Positions 51,699 through 64,000 of a stretch of DNA of 64,000 nucleotides are shown piece after piece. The notes under the pieces are model-generated. The model ran no database searches, was not told the DNA's origin, and saw only the letters and a program-made list of their open reading frames with translations. Both the position numbers and the translations under genes were made by a program. Source of the stretch: Planctomycetota bacterium (lineage in GTDB: Bacteria; Planctomycetota; GCA-002687715; CAIWVZ01). Positions within the stretch are counted from its first letter, which is position 1. Every line of letters begins with the position of its first letter. The stretch lies in assembly GCA_044222185.1 (NCBI GenBank), contig JBGANV010000006.1, positions 64,001 through 128,000 on the forward strand. The letters run 5' to 3'.

Positions 51699-51775
51699 GT
51701 GTCGCCTCCGGGTTTGGGAGTCGGGCGCCGCCGGAGGCCTGCAAGAGAGAACCCCCGCGGCGCGCCGTTCGATCC

Positions 51776-51829
51776 GCAGGAGTCATTGGCCCTCCTCCGC
51801 GGAGGGCGGTTTTGGCGGACTCCACCGCC
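51776..51829 (-). ncRNA. Fluoride (crcB) riboswitch aptamer
   Basis: Minus strand reads GGCGGTGGAGTCCGCC-AAAACC-GCCCTCCGCGGAGGAGGGC-CAATGACTCCTGC: stem GGCGG/CCGCC, pseudoknot GGAGT/ACTCC, AACCGC and ATGAC motifs; ~78 nt upstream of crcB. Confidence 0.92.
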
Positions 51830-52014
51830 GTCGGGACGGCGGAGATTTAGCATCTGACCCGTCACCGCGACGACCCCTCGGGCGGCTTCACGGACCCAGG
51901 CCGTGCGCCCGGCCGACTCCGCCGCCGTCGCCCGACCGGGAACTTTCGACGGTTTCATGGGTCGGAAAGCGGGCCGTTGCCTGGGGCGCGTCGACCGCCG
52001 AGAATCCCTCCCTC

Positions 52015-60121: not shown

Positions 60122-60368
60122 TGTGGGCGGCGCGGCATGCCGGCTGAACCGACGAGTTGTAAAGGTCCGTTGTCCGGGCGGCGCGAGTCGTCGATCGCTG
60201 TCAAACGGCATTGACGGTGTGCGATGCCGCCGCCGTTCGGACCGTCACCCGGCCGCTACGCTCGTTCGGTGGCGGTCCCACGATTTCTCGCCGTATCCCC
60301 GCTGAAAGCCGCCTAATCTAGTGGATGTTTCGATCGACCCGCGCCTGCCTTGGGTCCGAAACGGTGTG

Positions 60369-60384
60369 CGGCACTCGTGTTGCT
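60369..60384 (+). promoter_or_regulatory. Putative sigma54 (-24/-12) promoter CGGCACTCGTGTTGCT
   Basis: GG-N10-GC spacing is exact; GGCAC and TTGCT match the consensus; 70 nt upstream of ATG 60455; palindrome at 60198-60217. Confidence 0.72.
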
Positions 60385-60454
60385 AAGGCGAGAACCGACG
60401 GTCTTCCACGTGCGACGAGAAGACTGTCGAACGCCCCGAACAAGGAACCCCACC

Positions 60455-61654
60455 ATGGCGCGCTGGCACGATCAGTTCTCCCGACTCCGACCGGCCATTC
60501 TCGGCCTGGTCCTGGTGCTCTCCGCGGCGCGCGGCCAGTCGCCGCAGACTCCGCAGGCACCGCTGGCGGATCCCAAGGCCGATCTCGGCCGCGCCCTGTT
60601 CTTCAGCCCGCAGTTGAGCACGGGCGGCAAGACGAGCTGCAGCACGTGCCACGACCCGGAGAAGTCGTTCACCGACGGTCGCGCCGACTCGCGCGGCCAG
60701 CTCGACATCGGGATCGGCCGCAATTCGCCCACGATGTTCGCCATCGGGCAGGTGGAGAGGTTCCGCGATCCCCGGCAGGCCGAGCTGGCCGCGCCCGGGC
60801 GCCGGCCGAAGGTCATGTCGCTCGAGGAGCGTTGCCTCGCTCCCATGGAGAACGAGCTCGAGATGAGCGCGTCCGTCGCCTCCGTCGTGAAGGCGCTGCG
60901 AACGGACAAGACGATGAACGAGAAATTCGATCACGCGTTCGCCGGCACGGGCACCGGCGTGACGAAGGATCGGCTGGCGCAGGCGCTCGCGGCGTACCTG
61001 CGCACGCTCGATCCACCGACGACACCCTATGCCGCGTTCCTCCAAGGCAAGCAGGACGCGCTCACGGAGGTTGAGAAACGCGGCCTCGCGGCGTTCTCGG
61101 GGAAGGGCGCCTGCGGTTCGTGCCATTCGGGCTCCGCACTGAGCGACGGGCTCATGCACGTCGTCGACCCTCCGGGCGGCCAGCGCATTCAGGATCGCGT
61201 TCATGCCGCCACCGAGCGGAAGATCGCGCTCATCAGGCGTGAGTACGAGGTCAAGAAGCCGGGCACGCAGGCGACCATGAGCGTCCAGGCGATGATGGCG
61301 GAAGCCGAGAAGCGCCGCGATCTCCCAGGAGGCGGTGGCTACGACCCCGCGCAGCTCGAGGTCCAGACCACGACGCTGTGGGACGTGGCGCGCACGGGTC
61401 CTTACTTCCGCGATGGCTCGGCCGCCACGCTGAAGGATGCCGTCTCCCAGCACGTGTCCGAGCTCCGCACGGTCGCCGCGCGGAAGGACGAGGTGAAGAA
61501 GACGCTTGCCGAACTCGATCGTGGAGGGAAGCGCAGTCCGATCGAGCTGCGCGTGTCGCGCGAGTCGACGGTTCCCAAGCAGATTCCAGGCGAACTCTCA
61601 GGTCAGGAGATTGACGACATCGTCGTCTTCCTGAAAGCCCTCTCTCCGCGTTGA
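60455..61654 (+). CDS. Di-haem cytochrome c peroxidase/MauG superfamily protein (atypical)
   Basis: LGRALFF, SCSTCHDP, RNSPT, CGSCH, TGPYFRDG, LSGQEIDDIVVFLKALS; signal ARG|Q. Confidence 0.88.
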   Translation: MARWHDQFSRLRPAILGLVLVLSAARGQSPQTPQAPLADPKADLGRALFFSPQLSTGGKTSCSTCHDPEKSFTDGRADSRGQLDIGIGRNSPTMFAIGQVERFRDPRQAELAAPGRRPKVMSLEERCLAPMENELEMSASVASVVKALRTDKTMNEKFDHAFAGTGTGVTKDRLAQALAAYLRTLDPPTTPYAAFLQGKQDALTEVEKRGLAAFSGKGACGSCHSGSALSDGLMHVVDPPGGQRIQDRVHAATERKIALIRREYEVKKPGTQATMSVQAMMAEAEKRRDLPGGGGYDPAQLEVQTTTLWDVARTGPYFRDGSAATLKDAVSQHVSELRTVAARKDEVKKTLAELDRGGKRSPIELRVSRESTVPKQIPGELSGQEIDDIVVFLKALSPR

Positions 61655-61765
61655 CGCCGGCGGACGTCTTCGCGGGAACGTCACCCAGAACTTGCGAGCG
61701 ATGGATCGCCCGGCGGCGCAGGGCCGTCGGGAGCGGTCCCGGTGCGTGTCAATGGAGGAACAGGT

Positions 61766-62665
61766 ATGAGATCGAAACGGTGTGCACAGGTCGCGATGGT
61801 CTCCGTCGCGCTCACGCTCGCAACGTCGGCAGCACTCGCGCACGGGTGGACGTTCTCGCCGGTTGGCGGCGGGAACGTCGGAGCGACGACGCAACAAGCG
61901 CCCGCGCGCTTCACGGCTGGCGTCAACAGTACGGAGCCAGGCGCGTCCATGGGGCCGGCGACCGCCAATCCGAGCGGCGGAGTGACGGGCGCAAAGGGCG
62001 GATCGACGGGCCCCGCCAGGTCCAAGAACGCCCTCTCTCACCTCGACAAGGACATCCACATCGATTGGAAGCTCGCCTTCCTGCCGGTCGTCAAGAAGGA
62101 GGGGTATGACCCCGTCGTCCTGACGATCGACGAAGCGCTGACGATGTCCCCCGCCGACGGTGGGTGGCTGCGCGAGAACCGACCGTCGCTCGTGCTGGTG
62201 ACGGATCCGCTCAGCAAGGACCACCAGGCGCTCGTGAACAAGCTGGAGAACGACGTGCGGTTCAAGACCGGCACGTACTTCTTCAACTGCTTCCGACTCG
62301 AGTCCGCGGACGCGGGCAAGGCTCCGAAGGAAGCCCGGCTCATGATCTACGCGGCGAACGGGGCGCTGCTCAACGAGATCGCCGTGGAGCGCAAGCTCCC
62401 GCAGGCGTTCTCCACGCTGGAAGACGCCTTCAAGACAGCGACCGGCGCCGAGCTCTCCGGCGTCGTGTGGAAGATGGACTCGGCATTGAAGACGCGCGCG
62501 GCCCTCGCGCACGCCATGAAGTACGCCGAAGGCGGCATCGTCTGCCCGGACTGCGGTCACGAGCGTGATGACGTCCTGGCCGAGATCGCACGGATCAAGA
62601 TCCGCCAGCAGGAGTGCGAGCTGGCGATCAACGCGCTTCGCGCGCCGACGACGAAGAAGTCGTGA
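61766..62665 (+). CDS. Secreted hypothetical protein with thioredoxin-like region and C-terminal CxxCxH
   Basis: GGAGG upstream; signal ALA|H; low-complexity linker; RPSLVLV...FNCFRL; C-terminal VCPDCGH. Confidence 0.75.
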   Translation: MRSKRCAQVAMVSVALTLATSAALAHGWTFSPVGGGNVGATTQQAPARFTAGVNSTEPGASMGPATANPSGGVTGAKGGSTGPARSKNALSHLDKDIHIDWKLAFLPVVKKEGYDPVVLTIDEALTMSPADGGWLRENRPSLVLVTDPLSKDHQALVNKLENDVRFKTGTYFFNCFRLESADAGKAPKEARLMIYAANGALLNEIAVERKLPQAFSTLEDAFKTATGAELSGVVWKMDSALKTRAALAHAMKYAEGGIVCPDCGHERDDVLAEIARIKIRQQECELAINALRAPTTKKS

Positions 62666-62673
62666 GAACACAA

Positions 62674-62867
62674 TGGTCGTCGCGGGATGGCGGTGGTGTC
62701 AGCCCATGAGTTTCGCTCGGTCGCGAGACCGAGTGGAACGCCGTGGTCCGACGTTCAGGCCATTTCGTGTGGGGACAGGGGTAGGTTTCCATCCGTCGCA
62801 TTTCGTGGCGGTGGGTGGACCGGGCCGGGTGTCGGATCCCGACCGTTGCCGTCACCCGTGACGACCA
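62674..62867 (+). ncRNA. Candidate structured non-coding RNA of unknown class
   Basis: The 5' and 3' ends pair over ~23 bp with G-U wobbles; internal 13-bp GNRA hairpin; further stems; fills the intergenic gap; directly followed by a terminator. Confidence 0.6.
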
Positions 62868-62898
62868 GGCGCCGCCGCAATACGGCGGCGCCTTTTCT
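62867..62898 (+). terminator. Rho-independent terminator
   Basis: AGGCGCCGCCG-CAATA-CGGCGGCGCCT followed by TTTCT. Confidence 0.85.
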
Positions 62899-62945
62899 CG
62901 TTCAACCGCCACTGATGCGGGATGTTTCAGCCTGGGAGTTCGAGC

Positions 62946-64000
62946 ATGTCTCGCCTCAGCCGTGCCACCGTTCGAGCCTGGTCCGTCTGCGTCGCCGTCT
63001 GTGTGGCGACTGCCGTCACGCCGGCGCAACACCATGAGAAGCCGGAGAGTCAGGGCTCCGTGCCCGCGAGCCTGCGACTGAAGGGCGACCCGGGGCGCAC
63101 CGTCGAGTTGCGCGGCACGACCGACGCGCCGTCGGTGACGCATCGCGCCATGGGCGGCATGGTGAAGGACCTGGGCGTCGTCTGCCGCACCTGCGTGGAG
63201 GCTGGGACCACGGCCATGCTGCCGACGCAGAAGACGTGGGCCGATGGCCTGATGCTCGGTGCCGACCTCACGATGATCGAGCCCTGGCTCAAGCGAATGG
63301 CGGGCGTCGATCCGGTGATCCTCTACACCCAGCGCGCAGCGGTCGCCTGTTGCCTGGCGCCGGCGAAGGGCGATGGGATGACTCAGGAGGACCTCGATCT
63401 CCTCCGGGACACCTTCCCGCGGCTCAAGACGATCGACGACGAATTGGATTCACACGCGCGGGCTCACCTGTGGCTGAACCGGATCCGCAAGCTCGGAGAC
63501 CAGTTCGGAGCCCTCGTCGATCCGCAATCCAAGGGGTGGTCGACGATCGACGTCGAGGGCGGCACCCGTGAGATCCGGATCGAGATGTTCCTCTTCTCGC
63601 GGAAGGAGGCCCATGACGCCTTCGTGCAGCGCGCGTTCCAGCCCGGCACGTTCCCGCTGTCCGGCGCCCTGCTCCCATCCGGCGCCACCGGGGCCGTGCA
63701 CCTCGAGCGAGGACTGTCTCCTCAGGCGTGGATGCGGCGGGTCACCTTCTCGACGGCACGACAGTACGCCCGCTCGTGGACGCGCTTTCGTTCGACCGTG
63801 CCGCCGTTCATCGAGGTCGGCCTCGCGCATTACTTCGAGCTGCGACCCGGAAGCGCCCACTTCGACGAGGCCGGTACGTTTCCTCCCGACCTGAAACCGC
63901 CGGAGGACATCGACCAGTTCGTCGCCGACTTCGTCACGGCTGGCAAGGCCGCGGACCTGACTCCGCTGTCACAGACACCCGAATCCGGCCTGTCCGCGCG
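62946..64000 (+). CDS. Secreted hypothetical protein (3'-truncated; absent from the ORF track)
   Basis: Manual translation MSRLSRATVRAWSVCVAVCVATAVTPA|QHHEK... appears open to the window end; GGGAG RBS; contains CRTC and VPPFIEVGLAHYFE. Confidence 0.8.
   Translation, partial: MSRLSRATVRAWSVCVAVCVATAVTPAQHHEKPESQGSVPASLRLKGDPGRTVELRGTTDAPSVTHRAMGGMVKDLGVVCRTCVEAGTTAMLPTQKTWADGLMLGADLTMIEPWLKRMAGVDPVILYTQRAAVACCLAPAKGDGMTQEDLDLLRDTFPRLKTIDDELDSHARAHLWLNRIRKLGDQFGALVDPQSKGWSTIDVEGGTREIRIEMFLFSRKEAHDAFVQRAFQPGTFPLSGALLPSGATGAVHLERGLSPQAWMRRVTFSTARQYARSWTRFRSTVPPFIEVGLAHYFELRPGSAHFDEAGTFPPDLKPPEDIDQFVADFVTAGKAADLTPLSQTPESGLSA

Follow-up and report, generated by a model that had tools for sequence, protein, structure and literature searches.

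The 64,000-nt stretch of a Planctomycetota genome analyzed here (the window) carries, between two genes for secreted proteins that we call A and B, a 194-nt element at positions 62674 to 62867, which we describe as a real, apparently expressed, lineage-restricted noncoding RNA of the + strand. On a roughly balanced judgment, we read it as a stable RNA embedded in the 3′ untranslated region (UTR) of the transcript of ccp, a cytochrome c peroxidase gene, and the thioredoxin-like gene A, with a role in cis and possible release as a by-product. A preliminary description, made from the sequence alone, had offered three identities for the element: a novel small RNA (sRNA), a divergent 6S-like RNA, or an aptamer or attenuator for the gene downstream. 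The first of these is supported, as the element belongs to no Rfam family, folds beyond the controls, and is the part of its surroundings that contigs from RNA libraries cover. The window corresponds to bases 64001 to 128000 of contig C16 in the source genome (7.08 Mb, 67.5% G+C, 16 contigs, 93.8% complete).

Stability and strand specificity of the fold

Together with the terminator that follows it (62666 to 62900, + strand), the element folds to a minimum free energy (MFE) of -134.1 kcal/mol, compared with -103.6 ± 5.1 kcal/mol for 200 dinucleotide shuffles (z = -6.04). Without the terminator (62670 to 62870, + strand), the MFE is -110.1 kcal/mol (z = -4.90). None of the 200 shuffles was as good in either case, so the shuffle check proposed in the preliminary description comes out in favor of the structure. 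Because shuffles can flatter a native sequence, 2,500 random 201-nt segments of the source genome were also folded. None of the 1,442 segments matched to the element in G+C (within 0.03) folds as well, their minimum being -107.1 kcal/mol, and 1.3% of all 2,500 do. After regression on G+C, the element has a z score of -4.1, beyond the most extreme of the 2,500 native segments.

The - strand of the element reaches -83.6 kcal/mol (z = -2.78; 1 of 200 shuffles as good), which is 26.5 kcal/mol worse than the + strand. This difference arises because 17 of the 78 base pairs in the MFE structure, which leaves 80% of the 194 nt paired, are G-U on the + strand. The structure is an RNA feature of the + strand, in agreement with the earlier argument that G-U pairs on this strand mark an RNA structure and not a DNA palindrome.

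Evidence from RNA libraries

In an index of public sequencing runs, 20 runs from 11 study codes hold part of the region 62400 to 63200, all of them from sludge, bioreactors, or wastewater. Six of the 20 are metatranscriptomes, each with 0.19 to 0.20 of the sampled words of the 801-nt query. We mapped the contigs of two RNA runs with different study codes and of two DNA runs on positions 62200 to 63400. Each RNA run yielded exactly one contig, of 173 nt (62693 to 62865) and 183 nt (62686 to 62866), without any difference from the window, and the two cover nothing outside the element in these 1,201 bases. By our own arithmetic, the chance that two such random fragments would both fall inside a 194-nt target is about 3 in 10,000. 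At depths of 3.3 and 5.9, the contigs do not give strand, level, or true ends, and the lack of RNA-contig cover in other parts of the region is no proof of silence. DNA carry-over is unlikely because the flanks serve as a silent control. The confinement of the RNA contigs to the element points to a discrete, stable RNA and is strong, though not conclusive, evidence that the element accumulates as RNA.

Both RNA contigs stop at 62865/62866, the 3′ edge of the closing helix P1 (Table 1) and short of the terminator, a weak hint that a 3′ end lies there. A DNA contig from another study code (run X13; 62549 to 62781) bridges gene A and the element, so that their junction is not an assembly artifact. 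The partial shares of the query found in DNA runs X10 and X13 were considered as conserved islands and proved to be fragments of the same strain at low coverage.

Architecture of the element

In the MFE structure, a closing helix surrounds a three-way junction (Table 1). All of the motifs named in the preliminary description were recovered at the positions given. The strands of the outer closing helix, TGGTCGTCGCGGG at 62674 and CCCGTGACGACCA at 62855, pair as proposed, and the 5′ strands of the closing helix were also recovered as an inverted repeat (I2) with 13-nt arms complementary at 12 of 13 positions (92%). The strands given for a second closing helix, ATGGCGGTGG at 62687 and CCGTTGCCGT at 62843, are present, and the helix exists; its register in the MFE is shifted from the one proposed (P1b in Table 1). 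The GTTTCGCTCGGTC-GCGA-GACCGAGTGGAAC hairpin stands as described and is lengthened in the MFE by pairing of 62704-08 with 62742-46. P3 encloses two smaller hairpins, one of which, CCGUCGC-AUUUC-GUGGCGG at 62793 to 62811, was described correctly from its arms (CCGTCGC at 62793 and GTGGCGG at 62805). The interior of P3 is ambiguous, with inner-helix probabilities of 0.46 to 0.93 and alternative folds within 3.3 kcal/mol. Two details fared less well here. GGTCC and GGACC occur at 62745 and 62817, but their pairing is not that of the MFE (-106.0 versus -109.3 kcal/mol), and of the two copies of CATTTCGTG, present at 62761 and 62799 and both said to lie at hairpin tips, the second alone does so. 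By our rough estimate, chance would give about 0.1 direct repeats of 9 nt within 195 nt, which is not rare.

Positions that are reliably unpaired (probability of being unpaired above 0.7) form four short segments, AGC, GCGA, GGGG, and AUUUC, the longest of 5 nt. An exact 9-nt direct repeat, TGGCGGTGG, lies at 62688 to 62696 and 62806 to 62814, its second copy overlapping the second copy of CATTTCGTG. As both copies could pair with the same C-rich strands, alternative folds are conceivable. The loop and 3′ arm of P2 (62723 to 62742) show 70% complementarity (14 of 20 positions) to 62935 to 62954, where gene B has its ribosome-binding site and start, with a perfect 7-mer directly past the AUG; this match is probably due to chance.

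Table 1. Coordinates in the window of the element, its helices, and the flanking features
Feature	Position	Strand	Basis
ccp, di-haem cytochrome c peroxidase	60350..61654	+	Pfam CCP_MauG, E 7.3e-37
Gene A, 307-aa secreted protein	61742..62665	+	Open reading frame (ORF); TGA stop at 62663-62665
A-rich single-stranded linker GAACACAA, 8 nt, from gene A stop codon to closing helix	62666..62673	+	Sequence; unpaired in MFE
Structured RNA, 194 nt	62674..62867	+	Folding and RNA-library contigs
P1, closing helix, 13 bp	62674-86 with 62855-67	+	Mean pair probability 0.96; 1 G-U
P1b, second closing helix, 9 bp	62688-96 with 62846-54	+	Mean pair probability 0.76; 4 G-U
P2, 13-bp hairpin with GCGA (GNRA-type) tetraloop	62710..62739	+	Pair probability 1.00; inverted repeat I5
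P3, arm	62747..62836	+	62747-56/62827-36 (0.88), 62758-61/62823-26 (0.95)
Intrinsic terminator	62867..62898	+	Hairpin 62867-62893 and U-tract
Gene B, secreted protein, 418 aa, continues past window end	62946..64000	+	ORF

A proposed stable RNA in the 3′ UTR of the ccp-A transcript

The element starts 9 nt past the stop codon of gene A. The intrinsic terminator directly after it, with the next gene start 48 nt further on, was found as the preliminary description had stated; it has a stem of 11 pairs (10 of them G-C), and a loop of 5 nt, and it is followed by TTTTCTCG, with the tail TTTTCT. It is the sole terminator-like site on the + strand between 59800 and 63200, and none lies between ccp and the element. 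A scan for the sigma-70 consensus, together with reading by eye, found no sigma-70-like promoter in the same region. Promoters of the form TTGAC-N17-TAnnnT are plain by eye upstream of a 6S RNA candidate and of many tRNA genes of this genome.

Since no sigma-70-like promoter was seen and the first terminator downstream of ccp and gene A follows the element, the latter is most simply taken as the tail of the ccp-A transcript, and it would be transcribed as such and not from a promoter of its own. It lies on the coding strand between a stop codon and the operon terminator, which is the position of an sRNA derived from a 3′ UTR. The terminal helix of 13 + 9 bp (22 bp) would clamp both ends, so that the domain would resist exonucleases. 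An endonuclease may cut in the A-rich 8-nt linker, the sole A/U-rich single-stranded stretch and hence a putative site of nuclease entry. This cut, combined with termination or trimming at the terminator, would leave a discrete species, about 190 to 225 nt long, that outlives the decaying mRNA. A folded domain that outlives its message fits the appearance of the element alone in the RNA data.

In cis, the element would shield the upstream message as a cap at its 3′ end and, together with the terminator, form a boundary that limits transcription into gene B. We take this role as primary because most related A-B gene pairs, described below, carry a plain hairpin at the same position, and these hairpins may do the same job. 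The released RNA could be a by-product or might possibly have a secondary role in trans. If so, protein binding would be likelier than seed pairing, since no unpaired run exceeds 5 nt and no Hfq gene was found.

Several points weigh against this reading. The absence of a promoter depends on a sigma-70 consensus scan and reading by eye, and a promoter for an alternative sigma factor may lie inside the end of gene A. For protection alone, a hairpin far smaller than this 194-nt structure would do. The RNA contigs (depths of 3.3 and 5.9) leave ends, strand, and level aside, and the runs that supplied them may share one campaign. Their stop before the terminator hairpin is not what a plain 3′ cap ending at the U-tract predicts, though low coverage at transcript ends could explain it. 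Finally, no homologue was found, so there is neither covariation nor evidence of selection beyond one genome.

Known RNA families, partner proteins, and the possibility of an independent gene

With Rfam 15 searched across the whole window, no family reached its gathering score on the element. At E ≤ 10 on 62500 to 63100 (601 nt), nine matches appeared, all far below their cutoffs; the best was RcsR1, with 24.5 bits versus a cutoff of 60, and the four sub-threshold alignments examined rest largely on the terminator hairpin. No Y RNA family matched the element, and no riboswitch family did so even at E ≤ 10. Neither ARAGORN nor Rfam placed a tRNA, tmRNA, RNase P RNA, or signal recognition particle (SRP) RNA at the element, as the preliminary description had supposed. 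In the source genome, RNase P RNA (282.9 bits), SRP RNA (43.2 bits), and a tmRNA all lie on contig C1; ARAGORN also returned 58 tRNA calls, some of them doubtful (two typed "???", some at contig ends). The proposal of a divergent 6S-like RNA is not supported, as RF00013 is absent from the nine matches at E ≤ 10 and no unpaired segment longer than 5 nt is available for a central bubble. A full-length 6S candidate lies elsewhere (locus L017, C1:77549-77724, + strand), covering model positions 1 to 187 with 42.1 bits versus a cutoff of 46.4 (E = 1.1e-6). By eye, TTGACG-N17-CATACT directly precedes it, and Rfam-based annotation would probably miss it.

Searches of the genome, which is 93.8% complete, returned no match for TROVE/Ro (PF05731), Hfq (PF17209), or CsrA (PF02599); ProQ/FinO was not searched for. 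Neither RtcB nor Rsr is encoded among the neighbors of the element (ccp, A, B, and a GH24 lysozyme gene). A retron msr-msd was considered and rejected, as the downstream genes are B, without a Pfam family, and the phage-type lysozyme, and no reverse transcriptase domain occurs in 10 neighboring ORFs. A full-text literature search, at the level of listings, found no specific description of such an RNA.

These results bear on an explanation that we consider unlikely, namely, that the element is an independent gene for a trans-acting stable RNA (a ribonucleoprotein component or a protein sponge) with an unrecognized promoter inside the end of gene A. The layout of the element, with both ends joined in a long helix ahead of a terminator, is that of stable-RNA precursors, and maturation would, as in other stable RNAs, remove the terminator and shorten the ends as far as the terminal helix. 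The presence of the element without flanks in the RNA contigs, both of which end at 62865/62866 before the terminator, would be accounted for, and the GNRA loop and the three-way junction suggest a compact fold. However, the upstream region shows no sigma-70-like promoter of the kind seen at other stable-RNA genes of this genome, a partner gene is missing among the adjacent genes, searches for Ro, Hfq, and CsrA genes were negative, and the element has no match in any relative searched. A long shot, in our view, is that a new class of abundant, compactly folded stable RNA, forming part of an unknown ribonucleoprotein, is seen here for the first time, in a deep-branching and barely sampled class of Planctomycetota. 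The element would then look like an orphan because no genome closer than another genus is available.

Three observations concern other RNA genes of this genome. A fluoride riboswitch (RF01734) at 51770 to 51838 on the - strand is the only Rfam family of the window at gathering score (42.2 bits versus a cutoff of 34; E = 2.6e-8). A tRNA-Sec gene at C1:1632625 (+ strand) indicates that the organism probably makes selenoproteins, with no apparent link to the TGA of gene A. ARAGORN calls of "tRNA-Ser" starting with CCCCCCGCGG recur at or near contig ends (C2:10, C5:10, C5:73231, and C6:790270), which looks like an assembly-breaking repeat rather than real tRNA genes.

Homologue searches and the origin of the element

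The element is single copy, as its own genome gave the self match alone both by BLAST and by R1, a covariance model built from this single sequence (next best, 16.6 bits; E = 5.8). BLAST against its own genome and 40 relatives returned fragments shorter than 50 nt, and blastn against phages and plasmids gave no match to the element. At 25 loci that carry an A or B homologue, R1 found no match (best, 14.1 bits; E = 0.24), and it found none in 22 other species genomes of the class, all of other genera, or, with stricter filters, in a further 150 genomes of the phylum. Scans of metagenomes, first with protein B and next with a three-sequence alignment of A, returned no relative, and neither did a scan of genome contigs with the A alignment. 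A pattern scan with the motif pair listed 27 genome and 4 viral loci, none of which matches R1 (best, 15.6 bits; E = 0.28). R1 is weak at the divergence of the nearest relatives, whose A proteins are 24 to 37% identical, so that "not found" is not "absent" in these searches, and the orphan status may reflect poor sampling of the lineage. The idea that CAUUUCGUG loops pair with start codons (complement, CACGAAAUG) was rejected, as 13 of 28 genomic occurrences open a frame of at least 100 codons and six control 9-mers gave 34 to 58%.

It is also quite improbable that the element is a transcribed relic of a foldback insertion, similar to a miniature inverted-repeat transposable element (MITE) or of another kind, that landed between the stop codon of A and a preexisting hairpin and has no selected function, its RNA being stable merely as a long inverted repeat. 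The terminal inverted repeat, complementary at 12 of 13 positions, would suit such an origin, and the element looks like an insertion in that none of the nine other A-B pairs carries it in this place, and neither does the ccp-A locus of another genome (G019). Against this, neither BLAST nor the covariance model shows a second copy, no match occurs in phages or plasmids, and no target-site duplication is apparent by eye (the flanks are ACAA and GGCG); the preliminary description had named dispersed copies with target-site duplications as the sign of a MITE. Furthermore, the many G-U pairs confined to the + strand extend beyond the 13-bp ends and the - strand is 26.5 kcal/mol worse, which a DNA palindrome would not show.

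Gene neighborhood and the A-B pair in relatives

The genes follow one another on the + strand in the order ccp, A, the element, its terminator, and B, and a gene for a GH24 phage-type lysozyme comes next. The ATG at 60456 is the probable real start of ccp. The gene A protein has an N terminus resembling a signal peptide and a conserved C-terminal VCPDCGHER motif. No Pfam family matched it or the gene B protein; their nearest atlas clusters are thioredoxin-like for A and DUF1570/peptidase-MA-like for B, each a lead only. These language-model comparisons of the two proteins also suggest Planctomycetota, again as a lead. The ATG of gene B lies 48 nt after 62898, with GGGAG 6 nt ahead of it. A Pfam scan of the 10 neighboring ORFs found no reverse transcriptase, transposase, or nuclease gene nearby.

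Homologues of A occur in 10 of the 40 relatives and homologues of B in 19, and a B homologue often comes right behind one of A. Besides the pair of the window, nine adjacent A-B pairs were found, two of them on contig C14 of the source genome, with spacers of 17 to 195 nt. In two pairs (L045 and L047), the spacer is shorter than 20 nt and holds no hairpin, and in most of the others, a short G+C hairpin, often without a U-tract, or a small structured spacer stands by eye at the position of the element and terminator. Six of the longer spacers were compared with that of the element, and none aligns with it better than shuffles do (P = 0.13 to 0.91). Apart from the window, ccp is kept beside an A homologue at one locus only, in G019 (ccp 55% identical), where A is followed by a small hairpin and a terminator and B is missing. 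The two copies within the source genome lie at C14:368245-370464 (L031, - strand) and C14:323589-325800 (L037, + strand), with A 43% and 35% identical and B 30 to 31% identical. The 195-nt spacer of L031 folds better than all 200 of its shuffles (z = -4.32) and has no sequence similarity to the element (P = 0.91). Structured spacers may be a recurring trait of the A-B pair. The spacer of another genome, G009, was considered for a resemblance to the closing stem that included two apparent compensatory changes and was rejected (z = +0.44, stem not in the MFE, alignment P = 0.20). Two species of one genus (L033 in G021 and L034 in G015) carry a near-identical terminator-like hairpin, ACAGGGCGGCGCC...GCCGCCCUGUUCGCG, between A and B.

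The B homologues also bear on the third identity proposed at the outset, a leader of gene B in which a ligand- or protein-sensing aptamer decides on termination at 62867 to 62898. The order of structured domain, terminator, ribosome-binding site, and gene is that of a transcription-attenuating leader. In our own reading, the 5′ arm of the terminator offers a second possible partner for UGGCGGUGG, which occurs twice, and a pairing between UGGCGGUG and the terminator arm can be drawn by eye as an alternative. Nevertheless, we judge such a leader very unlikely. The terminal helix of 13 + 9 bp, with pair probabilities of 0.96 and 0.76, looks too stable and leaves little room to switch, the domain is absent upstream of the B homologues of 19 relatives and of the two paralogues within the genome, no Rfam riboswitch matches even at E ≤ 10, and the RNA contigs show the element alone. 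A role in recoding the UGA of gene A, through selenocysteine insertion or stop-codon read-through, is scarcely credible: although strong structure begins 8 nt past the TGA, the same frame runs on without a stop for another 124 codons to 63037, and the genome has a tRNA-Sec gene, the three full-length A copies (that of the window and the two paralogues within the genome) terminate at similar alignment positions, long open frames are common at 67.5% G+C, and the extension is Arg/Pro/Gly-rich, crosses the terminator, and overlaps gene B out of frame.

Significance and comparison with known systems

Next to nothing is known of the regulatory and structural RNAs in Planctomycetota and in other uncultured bacteria of wastewater. 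The element offers a concrete case, one that sludge communities apparently express and that matches no family model. If it is a true 3′ UTR stabilizer, it would show how an operon for periplasmic redox and protease functions sets the ratio of its products in a genome where searches for Hfq and CsrA genes came back empty. Should it instead be a trans-acting stable RNA, it would indicate an RNA-protein machine not known so far. With one sequence from one species, the general significance is limited. The metatranscriptome signal lifts the element above a bare prediction, and the lack of conservation, of a partner, and of a demonstrated function weighs on the other side.

The sRNAs derived from 3′ UTRs of enterobacteria, such as CpxQ and SroC, are usually shorter, expose a single-stranded seed, and depend on Hfq or ProQ. 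The element resembles them in starting just past a stop codon and sharing the terminator of the operon, and, to judge from the RNA contigs, it may also occur apart from the coding region. It differs in being 80% paired, with unpaired runs of 5 nt at most, and in a genome where no Hfq gene was found; its processing and targets are putative. Like 6S RNA (RF00013), it is about 190 nt long, has its ends paired in a long terminal helix, and is apparently abundant and stable. Unlike 6S RNA, it has a three-way junction in place of a rod with a large central bubble and no RF00013 match at E ≤ 10, and the genome holds a separate 6S candidate. A terminal helix formed from both ends and a multibranched interior are shared with Y RNA and YrlA, the partners of Ro (Rsr), whereas no TROVE/Ro gene was found, no Rfam Y RNA matched, and no RtcB or Rsr gene is a neighbor.

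Repetitive extragenic palindromic (REP), enterobacterial repetitive intergenic consensus (ERIC), and Correia-type elements are intercistronic hairpins or foldback repeats present in many copies. Like them, the element is a stable structure between genes of the same orientation, where it could both set polarity and guard the message upstream; unlike them, it is single copy, much larger, branched, and dependent on G-U pairs of one strand. With transcription-terminating riboswitch leaders, it shares the order of folded domain, terminator, ribosome-binding site, and gene, but its closing helix is overstable, and it shows neither conservation nor a family match. Rather than as a 6S RNA, a Y RNA, or a riboswitch, the element fits best as a lineage-restricted structured RNA of a 3′ UTR or intercistronic spacer.

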